Assembly: GCA_951406725.2 (NCBI GenBank)
Contig: OX597822.1
Location: 42,408,001-42,472,000, forward strand
Reading direction: 5' to 3'
Source of the DNA: Octopus vulgaris
Taxonomy: Eukaryota
DNA length: 64,000 nt
The translations under genes were made by a program, and so were the position numbers. Shown here in pieces: positions 2,141 to 61,852 of this stretch (positions within the stretch are counted from its first letter, which is position 1; every line of letters starts with the position of its first letter). The notes beneath the pieces were generated by a model. The model was not told the DNA's origin and searched no databases. It saw only the letters and a program-made list of their open reading frames with translations.

Positions 2141-3193
2141 TATAAATAATGAGGGAAGCTATATAGGCATTCACCACTTTTGCTTGACATTTCAGGGACA
2201 GCTTCCTTTCTGCCCATTTCTGGGTAAGACCTGTCATCCTGTTATTCAACACATCCCAGATTTTATCCAACTGGAGGTTGGGACTGAACTAGAATCTGAG
2301 CAGTTTAACTGGTTTGCCAGTCTAGCATCCAACAATGCTGTCCAACAGCATTGATCTGCCTGTCCAGATGCCCAACTACAAACCCACTGACTTGTCAGCG
2401 TTGATTTTGGTCCCTGCAATCGACTTGTATTACCTCAGAATGGTGCCAACTATCTCTACTTTGGAGGCATCTGACACCATGACATGATGTCCACATATGC
2501 CAACACTGTCCTCCCATATCCAAGTTTGAAAGGGATGCCTCTCAACTGTTCTGACCTCTACGGCCATGACTTGAGAACCAGCACATACAGAAGAGGAGAC
2601 TGCAAGTAGCCCTGACAGACTGAGCTTGCAATGCAAAACAGTTCTGATGGGTAGCTGTTTAGTTTGCTGTTGTGCACTGCAACAATCCAGCCTCTGAAAA
2701 CTGGTCACTTTCAAGATAACTTCCAAGTAGCAGTAGTTGACTCTATTGAAATAATAATAATCCTTCCTACTATAAGCACAAGGCCTGAAATTTTTGGGGA
2801 AGGGGCTAGTCAATTACATCAACCCCAGTGTTCAACTGGTACTTATTTTATCAACTCCGAAAGGATGGAAAGTAAAGTCAACCTTAGTGAAATAATAATA
2901 ATAATAATAATCAATTCTTTTTTATTGGCCACAAGGGCTGACACGCATGATTACATAAAGGGACAGGACAGGACGAAAGGTTACAAAGGGTTTTGTCCGT
3001 TTGTTAAAAAATCCGTGTAAAAAAAACTTTAAAACAATGATTATTAAAACAATGAAAAACTCCCAAAAGGGGGAGACGTCTCGAAATGTTCCCGGTGGAA
3101 AAAACCCTACAAAAGCCAACGGGAGCCTGGTCAAAAAAAGGGGGTGTAGAGAGTCCCCTTTCTTCTCCTTTTACATTACCTTTTTCTTTGAAA

Positions 3194-6100
3194 TCACAGG
3201 CGAAACCTGAGAACTGGTCCATTTATACAGGCCAGTCTCGCACAATTCACCCACCTTTCATAAAACTTGCTATCGGACAGCACTTTCCTCTCTAACCTCA
3301 TCTTCCTTTTCAAGTGAAACTTGAAAAAGTTGATGAGGCCTTGACCAAAGAGGAAAGTGTCTGTCTTTAGCCCTTTTAAACGAGTCCACCACACGACCTC
3401 TTTCGCCACAGCCACTAGGCACAAGAAAACGGCCTCGCCCTCCTTGTTAAAGGAGGTCGGCGGGGCAATCTTCACTATGGATTCGGCCGATAGTCGGATC
3501 CGTCCTACACGTGACAGTAGCTGTTCGACATAAACCCATATTTCAGCAATACTCGGGCACTGGACGAGTGCGTGCAGAACGGTTTCGTCGTCCTGGCAAC
3601 ACCTCGGGCAGGCCCGGCTGACGGCACTTCCGTGCCGGTAGAGTTTATCTCGAACAGGCAGAGCCCCTCGGTAGCACTGCCAGGCGAGAGACCTCTGGAA
3701 ATTATCCATCGGCCCCGGCCCGAAAGTCCTCCCGAACAGACTGCTCAGTTCGTCGTCTTCAACGCCTAGAGTTTCCCCGAGAACGTCGTCGCATTTTTCC
3801 TCCACTAACCCTCTATAGAACGCTAGAGTGGAGCTGTAACCGACCGCATTGCCCGCCTGGTGGAGGGCGGAGAGGGCTTGACGGCACTCGAGGTGCCAAG
3901 CGCCCTTTCTCGGTCTACGTTTGATCCAGGTCTGCAGCTCCGTCAAAGAGACGAGCTGCGGAAAATCGCGTCTGACAAAAGACGACCACACCTGTTCACC
4001 GTCTAGGAAGCGCTTGAGATGCCGCAGCCTGAGCGCATGTCTGCGCAACAGCAACCACGGCATTCCAAGGCCTCCGTTCAGCGGTCGTTGACAGCAGATG
4101 GATCGCCTGACCAGTGGCACCTGACCCTTCCACAAAAAGTCGAAGAGCAGACGTACCAGCTTGGCCAACCAGCGGTTGGGACAAGGGACGACGGTCAAGC
4201 GGTAATAGATGACGGATGCGATGTACGCATTCGCCACCTCCGCTCGACCTTTCAGGGACAGCTTCCTCTCGGCCCATTTCTGGGTGAGACGTGCCACTCT
4301 GCTCGTCACCTCTTCCCAGTTCTTATCCACCTGGAGGTCCGGACCGAACCAGACCCCGAGCAGTTTAACGGGTCCGTCTGTCCAGCGCCCTACGACGCTG
4401 TTGGACGGCATGGGCTTGCCTCTCCAGGTGCCCAGTTGCAAGCCCACAGACTTTTCCGCGTTAATCTTTGCCCCTGTCACCGCTTCGTACTGGTTTAGCG
4501 TCTCGCCAATCAGGCTAATGTGCCTGTGGCTCGACACCACCACGGTGACGTCGTCGGCATAAGCAGACACGCTGTTTCCGCCTCCTAGATCGCGCGGGAT
4601 GCCCCTCAAAGCCTCCAACTTGCGCAGTAATGGCTCGAGAGTCAAAATGTACAAGAGGGAGGAGAGAGGGCATCCTTGGCGGACCGAACGCGAGATGTCG
4701 AACGGTTCCGAAAGGTGACCGTTCACCCGTATCACCGAGCAGATGTTGCTGTATAAAGCAGCGATCCACCCGCGGAAGACTGGACCGAAGCCGGCTGCCT
4801 TGAGGACAGCTGCCAGGTACTGATGGTCGACCCTATCGAAGGCTTTACTCTGATCCAAGTTGATCAAAGCCCCACCCGCGCCAGCGTCGTTACCCACCCT
4901 CTCTATGATGTAGCGCATGAGATGGAGGTTGTCGTGTATCGACCTGGTCGGCACGGCGCATGTCTGCGTCCCGCCGACCAGCTTGTCCACGACAAGCGCC
5001 AATCTCTTGGCTAGCACCTTGGCCAAAATCTTCAACTCTGCATTGAGCAGAGTGATGGGCCGGAAATTCCCTATAACGTCCCCCTTGTTTGGGTCCTTCT
5101 TTAGCAAAGCCACCACCCCTCGACAGACAAAAGCAGGAATTCTCCCGTTTTGCTGCCAGTTGCAGTAGACGTTTGCCAACAGGTCCGCAAACAAGTCTGG
5201 CATCGAAAAGTAAAGCTCGTAGGGCAGACCATCCAAACCCGGCGATCTACCTCTCGTGCAACTCTTCATCGCTTCCTGTACTTCCCAGGCAGATATCGGT
5301 CCTTCGCAGCACTCCGCCTCGCTGTTCGAGAGTTGCGGCAGTCCGTCCAGGTACACACCGAAGTCTGTACCGTTGGTGTCCGTTCCACCGCTCGTCCCAA
5401 ACAGTTGAGCAAAGTGCCGCTGAAGCACCGTACACATCTGCTTCGGTTGGGTAACCTCGCGCCCGTTCTGGTCCACCAAAGACCGAATGGTTGCTTTGTT
5501 GCCTCGCTTCGCCTCCGCCACGCGGGCCCATCGAGCGGCTCTAGTCCCCTCCCCGTTTAGCGAACGTGCCTTAGCTCTGACAACGCAGCCTTCGTGTTTG
5601 GCGTCGAAGTGTTGGTCGAGGGCCAACCTTGCCGCCAACACGTCGGTCGCGATGCCAGTGTCAAGAGCCTCGTCTAGTTTCTTAACTAAATCCCGCTCTC
5701 TCTTCCTACGTTCAATAGCTAGAGTCTTACTATACCTAATCGACTCTACTCTAATTGCTCTCTTGAGGGCAAACCACCAGTTGTTGTTGATGATTGCCCC
5801 CGTGAGCGCCCGCTTAACTAGTAAACTAATCCGGTCTCTGTAAGCTTTGCACGCCGTTAACGACGCGTTCAGCTTCCAGTAGCCGGGTCCCTGTCTATGT
5901 AGCCTATCTAAGTCGACCGTACAGATCACTAATTTGTGGTCCGTATATTCGACTAGGTGGAATTGTGGACACCCTACGCTGTCCTTATCCGCTGGCCTAC
6001 AAAACACTCTATCTAAGTACGATCTAGACGACCCGATGCGGTTTGTCCAAGTCCACATTGGCACATTCGGGTTGTCTAGTCGAAACCTGTCGGACAGCTG

Positions 6101-6627
6101 AAAGCGGCCGAGTAGGTTGGCGAGGCTCTTGCACCCTCCCCTCTCCTAACAGACGCTCCCCTGCCCACCCGATCGAAACGTTCGTCTAAGACAGCGTTCC
6201 AATCCCCAACTAGTACTAGAGTGCGTGACGTTCCCAGGAAAACTTCCAGACGTTTGAAATAATCCGACTGCCCTGCTCCTGTCGGAGCGTAGGCAGCCAG
6301 CAGTCTGAAAGCACCGCCGTCACTACCGTCGACGTCGAGGACCACCAACTTACCTTCCGGATCCAAGAAGACTGTCCTTATTTTCAGGTCCAGGCCCTTC
6401 CGAAACAACACCGCAGTACCACCACCGCCCGCTCCCGGCCGACACGGAGATAGAAATATCTCGTATCCGCCGAAAAGGGCTGCGAGTTCCTGCGGGTCGG
6501 AGAGCCTGGTTTCACTGATGGCTGCTACATCCACATCATGAAACCTCAGGTCGTTTAACAGGTGACCCTGTTTCCAAGGTGACCCGAGGCCTCTCACATT
6601 CAAGCAACCGATTCTAAGATTTGCCAT
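3194..6627 (-). pseudogene. Tx1 ORF2 (AP endonuclease + reverse transcriptase + C-terminal zinc finger), one frameshift near 6135-6150
   Basis: APE motifs CLNVRGL, ISET, LVGDWN, SYLDRVF, TDHK; GPGYWKLN; RT motifs NFRPITLLN, LDQSKAFDRV, VRQGCPLS, YADD; CPRC-X8-HALVQC; 183-aa and 956-aa frames join via ...RRG/GCKSLANLLGRFQLSDRFRLDNPNVPMWTW. Confidence 0.93.
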
Positions 6628-6666
6628 GTCTCAAAGTAGGGGGAAAAAAAGGAGAAAAAAAAGGCT

Positions 6667-7475
6667 CTACTTACTGTTGTTGGTGGTGGGGGTGGCTCCC
6701 TTGTGCTTTTGCACGGGTGCTTCCACAATGTTTTTATAAAGTTTCTTCGAGAAACTTTTCCCTAGCGATCCCACATCGTTAGGGAATATTTGTTTGATTT
6801 CATCATATGATTTTGCATTTATTTTTATTGTGAGAATGTGTGCTGGTGGTGTGTTTTGTGTTGGTATGATGAAATCGGTTATATTTGTACTAGTTTTGTT
6901 TTTTTAAGTACTCCACTAGTTTTTGGTTCTTTGTGTTTATTGATGTAATTGTGTCTGTGTGTGTTTGTGTGTGTGGCAGTGGCAGTAGTGGTGTCGAAAG
7001 TGTTGTTGTTGTTTGTTGTTGTGAGTGTGTGTTGTTGTTGTTGTTGTTGTTGATGTTGGGAAGCACTATTTGTTCGTGCTTCCCCTGTAAATCTTTTTGT
7101 TTCTTCCTCCTTTTCTTCTTTGGAGGCACTATACTCCATTCTCCTTTGTTGGAATCAGAGCTCGCACAATCCGAGATCTCTTCATCCGGCAAAGGAATGG
7201 TTGAGGGGTCTGCTTCAGTAGCAGGACGAAAAGTTTCTGGTTCCACCGGTATCGGTGGTGCCGCTGCTCCTGTTACTGTTGATGTCGCTGCTGTCGACCT
7301 TCGAGGTACTGGTGTCGGTGTTGGTTTGGTGGTGGTTGTCGGTGTTGGTTTGGTGGTGGTTGTTGTTGTTGGAGGTGGTGTTGCTCGTCTTGGTGCTGGT
7401 GTTGGTGATGGTGTTGGTGGTGTGGCAGCCTTTGGTGTTTCTTGCTGTTTTTGTTGTTTCTGTTGTTGTTGCTTG

Positions 7476-7512
<37 letters not shown>

Positions 7513-8293
7513 GCTGCTGCCTCTTGCTGAAAGCCTCCATCCTCTTTTTGTGAATGGGACAGTCCCTCTTTAAGTGGCTTTCGCTGCTGCAGAGAAAGCA
7601 TTTTGGCTTTCGCCCCTCCACAGCAACGTTTAGCCTAGTGCCGTCCGGCAAACTTACGAAATCAGGGACTTTACTTATATTCTCTTGCTGAATTTGCGCA
7701 AGAAGCAGCACTCCCATCCCCAACCAGTTTTTCGCCCTCACTCTCCTGACATCTAGAATGGTGGTAGTGTCCTCTATATCATAGAGGACAGCTGCCACCA
7801 GCCATGACATATTTAATTCAGGGGGGACGAGGTCGATTTTTATTTTTGTAACTCTTCGCCCGAGGTGGGTTGGAATTAGTAACAAATTCTCAGTTTGCAA
7901 GGGCGAAATGGCGTTCGCCCTTGCCAGCTCCTCTGTTGGGAAGCGAACCTCCACGGTTCCAAAACGCTTCCCCTTGGTTACGTAGCTCTTTTGGGCCCAA
8001 ATGGGCTTTAGAGCTATCTCCAACTGTTGGGGTGTGGCATTTGTTATTCTTTTTAGTTTTCTGTCGAAAACTTTGTAAATTATTGTTTGCTTGTTGGTGC
8101 TTTCAATCACCTCTTGTGGAGTATTGAGGAAGATACCATTGCCATCCTTCCTTAACAATTCCTTCGCTCTTTTCACATCTTCTAGAGTTATCTTAACTTC
8201 CTCCGAAATTTGCTTCGCAGCAGAAGCAAAATTGTTGGAAGTTTTTTCTTTTATCTCCGTGTCAATGTTTGTGATGATAGCTTCTCTTCCCAA
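6667..8293 (-). pseudogene. Tx1 ORF1 (RNA-binding/gag-like protein), one-base insertion near 6900
   Basis: CFLCSSESHLKRDC = CX2CX4HX4C knuckle; polyQ and P/T-rich linker; removing one A from the A7 run (6899-6905) extends the frame as YLKNKTSTNITDFII...TNNSK* to 6667; no ATG at the 5' end and the frame is open to the element boundary. Confidence 0.8.
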
Positions 8294-8329
8294 GGTGTAC
8301 GGAAAACACTCGGCAAGAAATGGAAGAAA

Positions 8330-8775
8330 ATTCTGCTCAATACCACAGATTTGCTTGTCAGTTGTTTGACCTTAACTAGTTGACCATGTCCCTTAGTGGC
8401 TGACAATATGTGCATCTCTGATCATGAGCAGAAGTTATGGGGGAGCATCATAGCCATGTGTTGAGAGGAATTCCTTAGGGTTTGGATAATTCACCTTTGG
8501 AAATGTGGGTGGTTCGTTCAACATCCTTAATCCTTATTCAGGGTCTTTTTGAACGGGATGGGTTACTTGACCAGAAGAAAATTCTAACTGGGCCCCACCT
8601 GCAAGGTCATGTGCTGTTTATCTTGATATGAGATCACCATGTCACGCACATAAGGTTGTAATGCATGTGCGATGGGTAGTCATGATGGGTATACTGGGCT
8701 TCGTATATTTTACCCCAGTGTCACTTTGATGGCATGCACCGCTCTCTCACTCAATAATAATAATAATAATAATAA
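8330..8775 (+). mobile_element. Unclassified interspersed repeat bounded by (AAT)n
   Basis: homologous copies at about 17298-17830 (opposite orientation) and 54640-54881. Confidence 0.75.
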
Positions 8776-8777
8776 TT

Positions 8778-9375
8778 TTAAATTTTGCCACAAGGGCAGC
8801 AATTTTGGTGAGAGGGGATGAGTTGATTACATTGACTACCAGTGTTCAACTGATACTAATTTTATTGCTTCGTAAAGGATGAAAGATAAGGTCGACTTCA
8901 GGCAGAATTTGAACTCAGAACGTAGCAACAGGTGAAATACCACTAAGCACTTTGTCCAGTGTGGTAACAATTTTACCAGCTCACTACCTTAATAATGATG
9001 ATGATAATGATGATGATGATGATGATCATAATAATAATAATTCTTTCTAATAAAAGTACAAGATCTGAAATTTTGTGGGGTGAGAAATAATCGATTACAT
9101 CGACCCCAGTGTTCAACTGGTACCTAATCTATTGATACCAACAGGTTGAAAGGTTGACCTTGGTAGAATTTGAACTCAGAACATAAAGATGTACAAAATG
9201 CTGAATAATAATAATAATAATAATAATAATGATAATAATGGTTTCAAATTTTGCCACAAGGGCCACTAATTTCATGGGAAGGATGTATCAATTACATCAA
9301 TCCCAGTGCCCAACTGGTATTTATTTTCTTGACTCTGAAATGGAGAAAGGGAAAAGCAACCTTGGTCGTATTTGA
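8778..9375 (-). mobile_element. Cluster of SINE family A copies with alternative tails, separated by AAT/GAT microsatellites
   Basis: repeated gaatttgaactcagaa (B box, reverse strand) and atcgaccccagtg..caactggtac blocks. Confidence 0.75.
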
Positions 9376-9410
<35 letters not shown>

Positions 9411-14463: not shown

Positions 14464-14907
14464 CTTATTTCTTTATTGCCCACAAGGGGCTAAACATAGA
14501 GGGGACAAACAAGGATAGACAAGGGGATTAAGTCGATTAGATTGACTCAGTGCGTAACCGGTACTTAATTTATCGACCCTGAAAGGATGAAAAGCAAAGT
14601 CGGCCTCAGCGTAATTTGAACTCAGAACGTAACGGCAGATGAAATACCGCTAAGCATTTCACCCAGCGTGCTAACGTTTCTTATTACTTTATTGCCCACA
14701 GGGGAGCTAAACATAGAGAAGACAAAAAAGGACAGACAAAAGGATTAAGTCGATTACATCGACCCCAGTGTGTACTTAATTTATCGAACCTGAAAGAACG
14801 AAAGGCAAAGTCAACCTCAGCGGAATTTGAACTCAGAACATAACAGCAGACGAAATACTGCTAAGCATTTCACCTGGCGTGCTAACGTTTCTGCCAACTA
14901 ACCACCT
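14464..14907 (-). mobile_element. Two tandem SINE family A copies
   Basis: each begins on + with tttattgcccaca.ggg..ctaaacataga and contains the reversed B box. Confidence 0.85.
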
Positions 14908-15407
14908 TTCACTTTCTTTATCTTACTCTCCAACTCACTCTCATTTTGCTTTCCAACTGCAGCATCCATGTATCTACAGCAAAATACTTTTATCTGTCCC
15001 CTCTATAATTTAAATCTCTCAACTGGCACGAAGCCATACCCACTCAATTCTACTACTTCACTCTCAGCTGAGGGATTTTTTTTGGTATGCAAGATTTGTT
15101 GTGCAAGGTTCTTGGTGATCCTGTTGGTGCTGGCACTACATAAAAAGCACCCAGTACACTCTGTAAAGTGGTAGGTGTTAGGAAGAACATCCAGCTGTAG
15201 AAACCAAGCCAAAACAGACAATAAAAGCTGGTGCAGCTCCTGGTATTGCCAGCTCTTGTCAAATCATCCAACCCATGCCAGCATGGAAAATAGGTGTTAA
15301 ATGATGATGGTGATTATGTATGTATGTATGTATGTATGTATGTATGTATGTATGTATGTATATATGTATATATGTATATGTGTGTGTGTCTTTGTGTTTG
15401 TGTATGT

Positions 15408-16665: not shown

Positions 16666-17178
16666 TCATGCCAGTGCTCTGTAAACGCATCCATACTGGT
16701 GGCACATAAAAGGCACCCAGCATACTCTGTAAAGTGGTTGGCATTAGGAAGGGCATCCAGCCACAGAAACCGTTCCACAACAGACAATTAGAGTCTATCC
16801 AGTTCATCATCTGACCAGCACCATGTCAAACTGTCCAACCCATGCCAGCATGGAAAACGGACATTAAATGATGGTGATGATGATTATTACTATTATTATT
16901 ATAAAGGCGACAAACAGGCAGAATCCTTAGCACACCGGGTAAAATGCTTAGCAGTATTTCATCTGTCTTTATGGTCTGAGTTCAAATTCTGCCGAGGTCA
17001 ACTTTGCCTTTCATCCTCTCAGGGTCAATGAAATAAGTACCAGTTAATCACTGGGTTCAATGTAACCGACTTTCCCCTCCCCCAAGATTTCAGGCCTTGT
17101 GCCAATATTTCATTTTTATGTCATCAGCTCATGAGCTGTGGCCATGCTGGGGCACCACCATTTAAAGATCTTTATGAC

Positions 17179-17234
17179 GCCCCCAGTGAGAATTGAACTC
17201 ACAACCCCTGGTTTACAAGACCAGTGCTCTAACC
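17179..17234 (-). pseudogene. tRNA-Thr(TGT) fragment, 5'-truncated
   Basis: minus strand GGTTAGAGCACTGGTCTTGTAAACCAGGGGTTGTGAGTTCAATTCTCACTGGGGGC with intact anticodon stem CTGGT/ACCAG and T arm. Confidence 0.85.
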
Positions 17235-17256
17235 TCTATAGTAGAAAGGACTATTA

Positions 17257-18202: not shown

Positions 18203-20046
18203 GCATTATTATTATTATTATTATTATTAAGGTAGCAAGCTGGCAGAACCATTAGCTCACTGGACATAATACTTGACGACATCTCATCCATTCAATTTCT
18301 GGTGAGGTTGACTATGCCTTTCATTCTTTTGGGGTCAATGAAATAAGTAACTGTTGAGCCCTGGGGTCTATGTAATCAACTTGCCTCCTTCCCCAGAATT
18401 GTTGGCATTGTGTCAAAATTTGAAATCATTATGATTATCATTATTATTATAATTATGTCAAATGTATTTTGCCTGTCATTACATTCTGACTTCAAATTCT
18501 GCTGAGGTTGACTTTGCCTTTCAGCCTTTTGAGGTCAATAAATTAAATACCAGTTGCATACTGAGGTCGATCTAATCGACTGACCCCCTCCCCCAAAAGT
18601 TCAGGCCTTATGCCTAGAGTAGAAAATATTATTATATCACGTTGTAATTCTGTCTTTCTGATATAAACACAAGATCTGATATTTAGAGGAGTGGGTACTT
18701 GGTTACATTCCCTCCAGTACTCAATTGGTACTCATTTTGCTAACCATGAAAGAATGAAAGGCAAAGTCGACTTCAGTGACATTTGAACTTTTACATTCTG
18801 AGTTCAAATTCCACCAAGGTTAACATTGCCTTTCATCCTTTGGGGCTGATAAAATAGGTACCAGTAGAGTGTAGGGCCAATGCAATTGACTAGCCCCTCT
18901 CCTCAATATTTCAATCCACATGCCTATAATAGAAATTATTATTGTTGTTGTCGTTGTTGTTATAATTATATTTCTATAGTCTCTACATATTACTGCTGCT
19001 GTTATTACTTATCCAAATACCAGCATAGATAAAAAGATTCAATTATTTGACATGTCACTGAGTACAGGTATCCATCAATGGGTGATGTCCTCCATTGATT
19101 TGGATAAAAAGATGGAACAGTTAATCTTTACTGATCCAGTACTCTACTTGTACTCACATCGCTGAACCCAGAAAGATGTAAAATGAAATCAACCTCAGCA
19201 GGATTTGGACTGTAAAAGGCTGCAACTAAATACCAAAAGGCACTTTTCCTATCAATCAAATGGTTCTGCTTCTCCACTGCCCACCTTTACAAGGGAAGTG
19301 AAATATTCTAAGAATTCATAAAATTTGTCTATTTTCTTTTCTTTTGTTCTACATCTATTTATTGCAGTCTGAGGGGCTGGTTTTGCATTGGTTCTTGTAA
19401 ATTTAGGGAAATAATTTTATTTCATGGTTGTGTGTTCTATCAAGCAATAAAATGATTAATTGTTAACATTTTGTCAGTTCAGTAGACAGTTCAGAGGCAA
19501 GCAGAGGGGGGACCAAACTGTGGTTGTGCCAAAAATTTCATTGCCATAAAAAGCAGCATAACATTTACAAATTATTGTAATAATTTTCTGTTAAATAAAA
19601 AGTGGTTAAGTCTTAAGGTAAGAATTGTATCAATGGTTTCTCACACTGTTTTGAATGGATGTATTATTTTTTATCATTAATAAAAATGTTGTCATTTTTA
19701 ACAACACAGTTATGTTAATATTAGTACAACATATGATTCAACAATTTGGTTTAGCTAAAAATTAGTACAAATATGTTTCCTGTTGTATTCAAATGTTACA
19801 AGCATCCAGTTATTGCAAATTTAACTAGTTTGAGCTTCTTTTAAGGTTTAATCAGAGGACGAAGAAATACGCTCAAGACATTTTTGTGGGCCTCTGAGAG
19901 TGGCTAATGGAGATGGAAAGTAATCCTCACATTGATGAATGTTAGCTACAGGGTGGGTGCTATTAAATTACCTATGTCCTAGTGGGAAGTGTTTAACTAG
20001 GTGATCGGTCACTAAAGAACAAGAACAGTTACTCTAATGGCCTTTA

Positions 20047-28223: not shown

Positions 28224-30254
28224 GTGAGAAGCCTGCTTCAGTTTTCTATTTTTGTCCGTATTAGTTGAGATGAAAAGTTTTCATTTCTTCAAGTGTTATG
28301 TACTGAGTTTGTTCCAGCTGGTGTGGGTGGAATATTCTTATAAATCTAAACATTTGCATATTGGCGGAGACATTGCTGTGTGGTTAAATTTGTTTTGTAA
28401 TCCTGTGATTCTGGAATTGACCCCACTGCTTGGCATAGCAGTAAACGTTTCTACTATGCTTCTGTGTTGATCAGTTTTTTGTTCGATTGATGGAAACAAT
28501 GCAAAAATCCATCTTGTATCTGTGTATTTGTTAACCAGAGTGCACCACCTTGAAGAACTCTAGTTGAGTGAATCGACCCCACTATTTTTGTTTCAAGCCT
28601 GATATTTATTTTATCAGTCTCTTGCTGAACTGCTAAGTTATGGGGGCATAAACACATCAACACCAGTTGTCAAGCAGTGGTGAGGCCCAGACACTTAGAA
28701 ACACACATGCATGCACATTGTGCTTCTTTCGGTTTCCATCTCACAAGGCTTTGTATGGTCTGAGGCTGTATTAAAAGACACTTACCCAAGGTGCCATGCA
28801 GTGGTGCTGAACCTGGAACCTTGTGGTTGGGAAGTAAACTTCTTATCATAAAGCCATGCCTGCATCTAACATGAGACAAAAATGAAACTAGAGTCAGTCT
28901 GATTGACAAAACTCTTGGAGGTGGTGCTGACAGTAGTAAAAGACTTGATGGGGAATTTCTTTAACAAAAAGGAAACTTCATACATCAGTGAGTCTGAGTA
29001 ATTAACCTAAGTGAACAAGTTTATAAAACTTTCTAAAAGTTCTTAAAATATACTAGTTATTCACACCTACTCATATACAATATTGTACATCATCTTAGTG
29101 GGTTTCTTATCCCTACTTCAGTAAATATGGTGGTGTCTGTTTCACTGAGGAAGTCCAAAATATGACCAGAGTTGTCCTCCATATGTGTTAAAAGGGTTAG
29201 ATTAATGTTGGTTTCAAATTTTGGCACAATGCCAACAATTTCTGGGGAGTGGGTAAGTTGATTACATCAACCCAAGTGCTCAACTGGTACTTATTTCATT
29301 GACCCCAAAAGGATGCAAGATAAAGTCAACCTCACATGGAATTGAACTCAGAATGTAAAGATGGACAAAATGCCACTAAGCATTTTATCCTGACATGCTA
29401 ACAATTCTGCCAACTTGCTGCTTTGAGATTAGGTTAATATTAAAAGCTTACCTTAGCTGTTGCTTACAAACGGGTAGCTTGTACGTGCTTTTTCTAATTG
29501 TTTTAGGTGCCTATGTAGTCCTGAGCAGACATGGACATCCTCTCGACCCTCTTATCCTTTGACCCATTGAAACACTGAGGATGTGACTTGAAGAGCAGAG
29601 AGGACTCTATCAGCACCTGGCTGGTATTCATTACAGCTGAGTGGAGTAGAGCAATGTGAAATGACATACTTTGTACAAGTACTCAGTGTACTGCCTGTTC
29701 CAGAAGTAAAATCCATGATCCCATGATTGAGAGCCCAATGCCCTAACTACTTGGCCCCACACTCCTTCATAAAATTAGCATTTGACACTGTGCAAGGTTG
29801 TTTGTTTTCTGACGGCATTTTTATTAATAATATATATTTTTATATTCACTACATTAAATATATATAGCTCCAACCTCATTGCATAGCACATTGAGTAAGT
29901 GTTTTCTATAGTAGATTTGGGTCAACCAAAACCTCGATAAAATCAATAGACAGAAACTGGTAGCCTATCGGTGACTGTTCTTGTTATTAGGTGACACGCT
30001 TAACTCATTATCCAGTTCAACACTATGTCATGGTGTGCTTGCATGTCATTTGCTCAGTCAGTTGCTTGGTCTTTCAGTAATCAACTGTATCTATAGATGA
30101 TGAGTGGTATAAATTTTGGGGTTTAATAAAAGTCTATAAAACAAAATCAGCCTCAGTAGGAATTGTAATTATAATGTGAAGGGCCATAACTCTAAATTCA
30201 GCTAGGCATTTCAACACTAATTATGATTCTGAGTCCGCCAACATATGTGTGTGC

Positions 30255-36617: not shown

Positions 36618-37710
36618 TTGGAGCCTGGTGCAGTCATCTGGTTCGCCAGTCCTCAGTCAAATCGTCCAACCCATGCTAGCATGGAAAGCAGACATTAAAT
36701 GATGATGATATACATATGTATAATATATATATTATACATATATATATTTGCTGTGCTTGAGAAGAAGAGTCATCAAGTCAAGTGAAATTGTAGTTATGGC
36801 AGATACTGGTGTTACATAACTGGTACTGGTACCGGTGGCACGTAAAAGCACCCATTACACTCTCGGAATGATTGGTGTTGGGAAGGGCATCCAGCCGTAG
36901 AAAGCATGCCAAATCAGACTGGAGTCTGGTGCAGACCCTCAGCTTAGCAGCACTGATCAAATTGTCCAACTCATGCTAGCATGGACAATGGATGTTAAAT
37001 GATGATGATGTAGTGATAGTGTTCCTGCTGCTTAAAGTACTTGTACCCCACTCCCATGGGGGCAATAACAGAATATCAACTGTTGACTAGATTGATTCAG
37101 TAATGTGTTAAGAATACAATAATAATGTTTTCAAATTTTTGTACAAGGCCAGCAATTTTGTGGAAGGGGATAAGTCAATTATCATGACCCCAGTGTTCAA
37201 CTGGTAGTTTTTTATTGACCCTGAAAGGATGAAAGACAAAGTCAACCTTGGCAGCATTTGAACTCAGAACATAAAAATGGATGAAATGCCGCTAAGCAAT
37301 TTTGTCTGACGTGATAACGATTCTGCCAGCTCACCGCCTTAATAATAATAATAAAAAGAAACAGAAAATTATTTAAGAATGATCTCTTGTTTACCTGCAA
37401 GTTTTGTAAAAGATTGTTTTTACTGGTACATTAAATGTTTAGAGGAACATTGTTGCTGTGAGAACAATAACTTGTCCTGTAAATAACTTCTTTTTTTTTT
37501 GCATAACTTTATTTGGTTTTGTAAACGAACAACTGAGTGTATTTATTTTAGTGGCTTACCAATGTATACAGTGAGTTTCTTTGCCCTAGGCATTGGGAAG
37601 ACACTCGACAAGAAACAGAAACAAAACTGAAAGAAGAATAACTACTACCAGAACTATTACTAATAATATAATAATAAATCCATACTTTATTTATTTTGTT
37701 GTACTTGCAG

Positions 37711-54984: not shown

Positions 54985-55351
54985 CAATCATCCTTTCTAC
55001 TATAGGCACAAGGCCTGAAATTTGGGGGGAGGGGGATAGTTGGTTACATTGATCCCAGTGTTTGACTGGTACTTATTTTACTGATCCCAAAAGGGTTGAT
55101 GAAATAAAGTGCCAATTAAGTATTAAGGATGATGTAATCAACATGTCCCCTTCACTCCCATTGGCCAAGTGCCAAAATTAAAAAGAATCGTTATATTGCC
55201 TTTGGTTTCAGGATGGTTGTTATAACCTGGTCAGTTTCCTGTCTTGACCTTGAAGTTAACAGAGAAAATGACAAACGACTGAGAGGAATGGCAATATGTG
55301 GTTCTCAAGAAGTGCTGCCCAATGCAGTGAAACAGTTATGGAAGAACTGTA

Positions 55352-61518: not shown

Positions 61519-61635
61519 CATGCATACATACATACATATATATATATCACAGTATCACTGCATTGATCATGCTTTGTTGTAGCATTCAACTGATGCCACC
61601 CTGCTGGCTATGCATGTAGGCCTGTAATATATATG

Positions 61636-61852
61636 TTTCTTTATTACCCACAAGGAGCTAAACATAGAGGGGACAAACGAATTAAGTCGATTACATCGAC
61701 CCCAGTGCGTAACTGGTACTTAATTTATCGACCCCGAAAGGATGAAAGGCAGAGTCGACCTCGGCGGAATTTGAACTCAGAATGTAGCGACGGGTGAAAT
61801 ACCACAAAGCACTTCGCCCAGCGTGCTAACGTCTCTGCCAGCTCGCCGCCTT
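61636..61852 (-). mobile_element. SINE family A, full length with TSD
   Basis: 17-bp TSD TAGGCCTGTAATATATA at 61617-61633 and 61854-61870. Confidence 0.9.

Follow-up and report, generated by a model that had tools for sequence, protein, structure and literature searches.

Several families of octopus L1/Tx1-type LINEs that bear ORF2, their ORF1-only derivatives and the three tail types of an abundant SINE, here called SINE-A, end in a common 3' module, and together they make up what is probably a stringent SINE/LINE system of an animal, though a wider and less exacting one than first proposed. Every relative whose 3' end was traced finishes in a stem of 3–4 bp and an AATAAA-like box. We assign a probability of about 0.62 to the joint reading, drawn from sequence comparison, that the LINE ORF2 protein (ORF2p) recognizes this hairpin by shape and position across the whole group, that the last bases of the RNA anneal to the target, and that other elements borrow ORF2p in trans. 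The starting point was a window, by which we mean the entire 64-kb stretch of DNA analyzed, from a genome of 2.8 Gb (227 contigs).

The window LINE and its family

The LINE in the window, assigned to family A, lies on the minus strand and has the following parts:

2913..2992, minus strand: 3' terminal region, with a pyrimidine-rich block, the hairpin and an A-rich box
2928..2938, minus strand: hairpin core GCC-CTTGT-GGC
2921..2926, minus strand: AATAAA box after the hairpin
2891..2911, minus strand: (ATT)n tail or target repeat, without poly(A)
3194..6145, minus strand: reverse transcriptase (RT) and zf-RVT part of ORF2, 983 aa, frameshifted relative to the endonuclease part in the window copy
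6076..6630, minus strand: apurinic-type endonuclease part of ORF2
6890..8278, minus strand: ORF1 with a CCHC knuckle, 5'-truncated at 8278; full-length copies are about 490 bp longer

This copy carries one frameshift in ORF2 and has lost the 5' part of ORF1, with no duplication at the 5' junction. The Pfam domains PF03372, PF00078 and PF13966 were identified in ORF2, whose best match among solved structures is human L1 ORF2p (E = 1e-49, versus 5e-23 for R2); with an apurinic endonuclease, an RT closest to L1 and a C-terminal zinc motif, the element belongs to the L1 group (L1 plus Tx1). ORF1 matched no Pfam family, and a CX2CX4HX4C knuckle is seen in its translation. The ORF1 of the Tx1 clade has a CCHC knuckle, unlike that of mammalian L1. 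We use the label Tx1 because of this ORF1 and the target specificity described below. The closest named protein relative is from Argonauta hians (67–71% identity), and a genome search with the Argonauta protein returned family A as the sole family. In a quick tree, which included no labelled Tx1 or L1 row, families A, B and D, P0001 and the Argonauta protein formed one group (SH-aLRT 99) that sits among amphibian, fish and tick RTs, apart from the octopus CR1 and RLE types. Its sister there is a large unnamed ENA group (P0003–P0055, 40–54% identity).

Many other copies of family A are 5.87 kb long and have an intact ORF2 of 1,145 codons. All 40 scored matches in the genome reached the tail, at 96–100% identity, and all 30 fetched loci, the window included, end in hairpin, AATAAA and (ATT)n, with poly(A) after none of the 30; the hairpin core was intact at 59 of 59 sites counted in loci that may overlap. 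These 40 matches and 30 insertions into (ATT)n rule out that the tail is a SINE fragment abutting the LINE, and uphold the earlier note in treating it as the LINE's own. The full-length copies have (ATT)n on their 5' side too (14/14). Given (ATT)n at both ends and near-identical copies, family A is young and (ATT)n-specific; target preference, a trait of the Tx1 clade, is thus found in family A for (ATT)n and in the related family D for (CTAT)n.

Family A also forms head-to-tail arrays with a period of about 5.87 kb, which come from insertion into its own (ATT)n tail (contigs C47, C50 and C4; loci L031–L034 and L044–L046). At 8279–8328 of the window, the truncated 5' end of the LINE adjoins the 3' end piece of an RLE-type element, likely R4/Dong-like, in opposite orientation. 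The (AAT)n in which RLE-type elements terminate is the opposite strand of the (ATT)n repeats used by family A, and another repeat, at 8327–8752, occurs directly after (ATT)n tracts at many loci.

SINE-A and the likely sources of its tails

SINE-A occurs in the window with tails of type T1, T2 and T3, the last in the forms T3a and T3b:

14465..14660, minus strand: SINE-A with T1 tail, hairpin GCCC-CTTGT-GGGC at 14478–14490; a second T1 copy lies directly upstream, at 14690–14908
54985..55094, minus strand: 5'-truncated SINE-A with T2 tail, hairpin at 55004–55016; ends in (ATT)n
8770..8991, minus strand: SINE-A with T3b tail, hairpin at 8786–8798, in an (ATT)n cluster; a second T3b copy at about 9240–9383
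2760..2893, minus strand: 5'-truncated SINE-A with T2 tail, directly downstream of the (ATT)n of the LINE
61635..61852, minus strand: full-length copy of SINE-A (T1) that has a target site duplication and motifs resembling A and B boxes; served as body query
37125..37341, minus strand: SINE-A with T3a tail; further T3a copies at about 18228–18425 (plus strand) and 29205–29424 (minus strand)

The hairpins at 14478, 55004 and 8786, like that of the LINE and its AATAAA, all read as the earlier note had written them. We surveyed SINE-A in 120 random 10-kb stretches (1.2 Mb), which gave 263 body matches, 210 of them with a 3' end: 82 T1, 62 T2, 45 T3 and 21 unclassified. Leaving out the 53 without a usable 3' end, the 21 unclassified and 10 that could not be anchored on the loop, the loop-anchored set holds 77 T1, 60 T2 and 42 T3 copies. 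Extrapolated from the 1.2 Mb, the genome contains roughly 6 x 10^5 SINE-A fragments. The head has an A-box-like motif at +16 and a B-box-like motif at +78; it was not called a tRNA by ARAGORN or Rfam, and Rfam returned no family on either the head or the LINE tail. With boxes in a tRNA-like head, a high copy number and target site duplications (T1 9/40 against a control of 0.2, T2 6/25, T3 3/17), SINE-A is a tRNA-derived SINE (SINE2). Its middle may resemble the Deu/Nin domain. Octopus SINEs derived from tRNA, named OK, OR1 and OR2, were reportedly described by Ohshima and Okada in 1994 (cited in PMC4758252 and PMC4824008), and SINE-A may be one of these. T1 copies are young (3.5% mismatch around the hairpin), and T2 and T3a copies are older (10–14%). 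Elsewhere in the window, the 5' half of a tRNA-like sequence lies just before a SINE-A copy (1871–1905) and a tRNA-Thr(TGT) is called at 17178–17251 (Rfam, 32 bits).

The tail types differ in how they end. Despite its AATAAA, T1 is followed by poly(A) in none of 77 copies, and by (ATT)4 in none. It ends in AGGTA in 32 of the 77, an ending linked to a subfamily base (28/48 versus 4/27, p = 2.6e-4), and several T1 target site duplications start with GGTA; these ends and duplications together fit priming by terminal annealing. T3b, which has a stem of the family A/B type, precedes (ATT)4 in 8 of 14 copies, compared with 3 of 46 for T3a. Since two of eight T3a copies in a closer look also touch (ATT)n, the preference of T3b is a tendency only. 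In 40 of the 77 T1 copies AGTAAA stands in place of AATAAA, and T2 has AGTAGA-like boxes; speculatively, this shift from A to G might stem from RNA editing or mean that a poly(A) signal was lost. In 22 of the 77, T1 runs on into an internal SINE-A site, giving dimers that end in another tail type (e.g., L064, L070, L088, L328 and L330), a possible route for tail exchange.

The earlier note held that the window's LINE shares three colinear blocks with the T1 tail, and that one SINE head had repeatedly captured otherwise different tails from related Tx1 partners. The blocks are present, with gaps (z = 5.8, 0/300 dinucleotide shuffles), but the window's LINE ranks 14th of 15 as a match to T1, which the tails of families F, D and B match better. 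Against five LINE tails found through ORF2, T1 scored z = 5.2–9.7, with 0/300 shuffles each, and this one SINE tail clearly comes from the LINE group. Homology of a SINE tail to a LINE 3' end, one mark of a stringent pair, is thus indicated by alignment for T1, and weakly for T2 and T3, whose best scores against ORF2-bearing tails are z = 2.1–4.7 (T3a against the window's LINE, –0.1). T2 and T3 show homology with each other along their length (z = 8.6, 0/300), so that the tails at 55004 and 8786 are not otherwise different. These two types likely descend from one older capture, and the idea of repeated independent captures gives way for them to a single lineage.

Insertion signatures set T1 apart from family A: (ATT)4 follows none of 77 copies, versus (ATT)n at 30 of 30 family A loci. 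The window's family is a distant cousin of the T1 tail and probably not the donor or carrier for which it had been taken; SINE-A likely owes its T1 tail to an F/D/B-like relative. A carrier of T1 outside microsatellites was not found among the LINE families traced. Around the loop, 14 bases of T3b are identical to those of family B, from which the T3b stem could have been copied; in a single chimera (L134), a copy of family B has a T3b SINE tail at its end. We rejected octopus LINEs of the CR1 and RLE (R4/Dong-like) types as the tail source: one natural tail of each, compared with five SINE tails, reached at most z = 1.5 (for T1, 0.4 with the CR1 type and –0.8 with the RLE type).

Conservation, pairing and proposed reading of the module

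Families B, C and D were found through ORF2 fragments in random stretches, and E, F, G and H through patterns containing the motif. Family B is old and inserted in (ATT)n, with a loop of CUUGU or CUGGU (8 and 8 of 20 matches). Family D is young and (CTAT)n-specific, with a CUGUGU loop; this sister family has copies 98–99% identical (L141–L170, L260). C is one copy with an 8-nt loop, and G and H showed ORF2 matches in 4 of 20 loci. A pattern with a swapped G-C stem and AATAAA gave 84 genome matches (control 0), and the 30 loci fetched comprised 12 SINE-A, 14 E/F and 4 unclear. The search for LINE families with alternative tails proposed in the earlier note thus turned up the related E and F with the G-C stem, but ORF2 in none of those 30. 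Among E/F loci only 3 kb long, 10 of 15 held an ORF1 homologue and none ORF2; for F alone, in loci of the same length, the figures are 4/11 and 0/11, and these 11 yielded no ORF2-bearing relative of F. The units are about 1.9 kb long and often tandem, and the F loop is mostly UUUAU (8/11). With ORF1 kept, ORF2 absent and the LINE 3' end kept, families E and F are HAL1-like. Bao and Jurka (2010) are said to be a source on such HAL1-type ORF1-only LINEs. These derivatives often stand head-to-tail (L202, L204, L209, L210, L216, L213 and L321), and some E copies (L206, L211) are inserted in SINE-A heads.

Conservation is concentrated at the very end of the elements. Eight lineages were compared in 28 pairs: the terminal 35 nt can be aligned in every one of these (z = 4.0–14.1), and the 90–200 nt upstream are unrelated in 26. 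For the four lineages found through ORF2, the terminal 35 nt gave z = 7.4–12.6 in 6 of 6 pairs, with upstream values of at most 2.2. By these alignments, terminal conservation beside unrelated upstream UTRs is the pattern one would expect of a selected terminal signal. The hairpin stands directly before AATAAA in all LINE families traced. Its loop is less uniform than the earlier note's invariant CUUGU: this is the majority loop in all three SINE-A tail types and in A, B1, E, G and H, and CUGGU, CUGUGU, UUUAU and one 8-nt loop occur in B2, C, D and F. The conserved, specifically read loop of a stringent pair is accordingly not what these families have, their loops differing, and the stem is maintained with loop lengths of 5, 6 and 8 nt.

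The claim that stems change and yet keep pairing was borne out genome-wide. With exact 26-base patterns for T3 tails, any bases at the second stem pair gave 7,302 matches (many in satellite), C-G 513, C/C 54 and G/G 91; the paired double change thus outnumbers either unpaired single change, with about 1–3 predicted by independence. Much of the 7,302 comes from a 115-bp tandem satellite (L340; C1, about 7.545 and 8.505–8.512 Mb) that consists of the 3' body of SINE-A and the T3a tail. Among the first 100 of 187 matches to LINE-type tails, 56 had C-G, 13 G-C, 4 G/G and 1 C/C, with 26 other single changes. Over 14 natural representatives, which were hand-picked and include four lineages (E, F, G and H) that came from motif-holding patterns, the inner three pairs are paired in 42 of 42 cells and the outer pair in 9 of 14. 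The covariation score was 0.527 (0/500 shuffles; slid controls at most 0.11), and two of five measures, those counting pairs or types, did not go beyond shuffles (109 and 69 of 500). Of 56 columns aligned between T1 and an F tail, 49 are identical, and two compensatory swaps account for four of the five mismatches. All such counts are of copies, not events: independent double changes number about three, that of T3b was possibly copied from family B, and the T1 stem could have arisen by slippage in C and G runs. A stem-loop with compensatory changes, a further mark of a stringent pair, is present, though with few independent events; no amplified lineage has a broken inner pair. Of 14 short tails, 12 show the hairpin in their minimum-energy fold, as do C, D1 and D2; it is missing from the other two and from a 71-nt T1 fold. 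We discarded thermodynamic stability as evidence, the hairpin being no stabler than shuffles (window LINE z = +0.79; range +0.79 to –2.71).

We propose that ORF2p would recognize a module of a 3–4 bp GC stem, a pyrimidine-U..U loop and an A-rich box to start reverse transcription. The exact sequence of the loop would count for less than the shape and position of the stem, and recognition would thus extend across the clade instead of tying each SINE to one LINE. The final few bases of the RNA, with no poly(A), would pair with the nicked target and so contribute to the choice of site, namely (ATT)n in families A and B, (CTAT)n in D and, for part of T1, sites of GGTA type. ORF2p would be borrowed in trans by SINE-A and by the ORF1-only elements. 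A more speculative extension, to which we give little weight, is a two-part tail code in which the clade-wide hairpin licenses any RNA for ORF2p, and stem identity and last bases choose the carrier family and site. If true, the switch of a single stem pair to the form seen in families A and B let SINE-A, as T3b, into the (ATT)n niche, and the system, with its young intact elements, would offer a living model, open to assay, of the stringent ancestor from which the poly(A)-reading L1 of mammals arose.

The position of the hairpin immediately before AATAAA in every LINE family traced would also suit a signal read by a host factor for 3' processing, RNA stability or export, with ORF2p needing the A-rich and terminal repeat bases alone and SINE-A keeping the hairpin for a host reason; so would a loop that varies freely, unlike that of the loop-specific L2 system (PMC4176376). 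We regard this as unlikely. T2 and T3 keep the hairpin where AATAAA has decayed, which argues against a pure polyadenylation role, insertions lack poly(A) (family A 0/30, T1 0/77), and a SINE tail captured from a LINE is the usual mark of recognition by ORF2 (PMC3747384).

Still less probable is that the module is inherited without structural function, its apparent covariation going back to a handful of slippages or gene conversions in which pairing was kept by chance. Independent events are indeed few, folding energies no better than shuffles, and both the identity of T3b with family B and the L134 chimera would fit such copying; but against neutral inheritance stand the conservation of the terminal 35 nt beside an unalignable UTR, the unbroken inner pairs of every amplified lineage, and a stem that survives three loop lengths. 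The strict version, in which an exact CUUGU loop is recognized, SINE-A depends on the window's family and every one of its tails was captured from a separate Tx1 partner, would draw on the majority loop and on T3b with its A/B stem and (ATT)4, but is the least probable, given the other loops in B2, C, D and F, the rank of the window's LINE, the contrast between T1 (0/77) and family A (30/30) in (ATT)n, and the homology of T2 and T3.

Comparison with known systems

Group-wide recognition of the hairpin by ORF2p would make this LINE group the likely driver of a SINE that is among the commonest in the genome. The rise of relaxed poly(A) recognition from stringent recognition has so far been argued from sequence alone, and an animal L1/Tx1-type group with intact 1,145-codon ORF2 copies, natural stem and loop variants and distinct targets offers ready-made swap experiments. 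We found no report of a tail-hairpin pair in an animal Tx1-type group in the literature, although one may exist in subscription journals, in supplements, in Repbase or in the 1994 paper on octopus SINEs; to that extent an L1-group tail-hairpin system in animal Tx1-type elements appears new, its plant L1 counterpart being already known. A 2026 octopus annotation lists 13 recently active L1-Tx1 families, and its accessible portion does not use "tail" or "stem" (PMC13282606). The word "Tx1" is absent from the available text of PMC9115989, PMC7245038, PMC4824008 and PMC3531059 and appears once, for SINEU, in that of PMC4758252; the supplements of PMC4824008 and PMC4758252, file 1 of each excluded, contain nothing relevant to SINE-A motifs. 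In the available parts of two surveys, three SINEs among 58 SINE/LINE pairs have L1-clade tails, all in plants or algae (PMC3472496; PMC3747384), and Table 1 of the latter, as accessible, gives no Tx1 or mollusc pair.

The crocodilian SINEU was linked to Tx1-Mar by targets and 5' heads, not tails (Kojima, 2015; PMC4494074). There too a Tx1-type LINE is inferred to mobilize a SINE, several families contribute and target preference is shared; SINEUs end in poly(A) and, in the available part of that paper, no Repbase LINE matched the 3' half of SINEU-1, whereas the octopus pair shares a 3' tail and its structure. Kibi and Koshi, microsatellite-specific Tx1 elements of fish with (TC)n or (TTC)n targets (PMC4494074), are likewise APE-RT elements of the L1/Tx1 group inserted in simple repeats; the octopus targets, compared by description, are (ATT)n and (CTAT)n. 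Families E and F resemble the ORF1-only non-autonomous LINEs HAL1, HeT-A and Ag-Sponge (Kojima, 2018; PMC5786205) in having an ORF1 homologue, no ORF2 and the LINE 3' end, and differ in coming from a Tx1-type group, in their size of about 1.9 kb, in their tandem arrays and in the swapped G-C stem.

In the L2 pairs UnaL2/UnaSINE, ZfL2-1 and ZfL2-2, loop-specific recognition was shown experimentally (Hayashi, 2014; PMC4176376). The octopus elements share with them a 3' stem-loop, terminal short repeats and a stem that is exchangeable if pairing is kept; they belong to another clade, their loops vary between families and the system is known from sequence. The nearest counterparts are the L1-clade pairs of plants and algae, namely ZmSINE2 and ZmSINE3 of maize and sorghum with LINE1-1_ZM, which have a compensatory hairpin (Ohshima, 2012; PMC3472496), and SINEX-3_CR of Chlamydomonas with L1-1_CR (Ohshima, 2012, 2013; PMC3472496, PMC3747384). 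In both settings an L1-clade LINE and a tRNA-type SINE have about 50 bases at their ends in common; these include a hairpin whose stem shows compensatory changes and a conserved loop and flank, and recognition is deduced from them. The octopus system differs in that it is found in an animal, lacks poly(A), ends in microsatellite or short-motif termini, has a much smaller stem and includes ORF1-only elements that carry the module.
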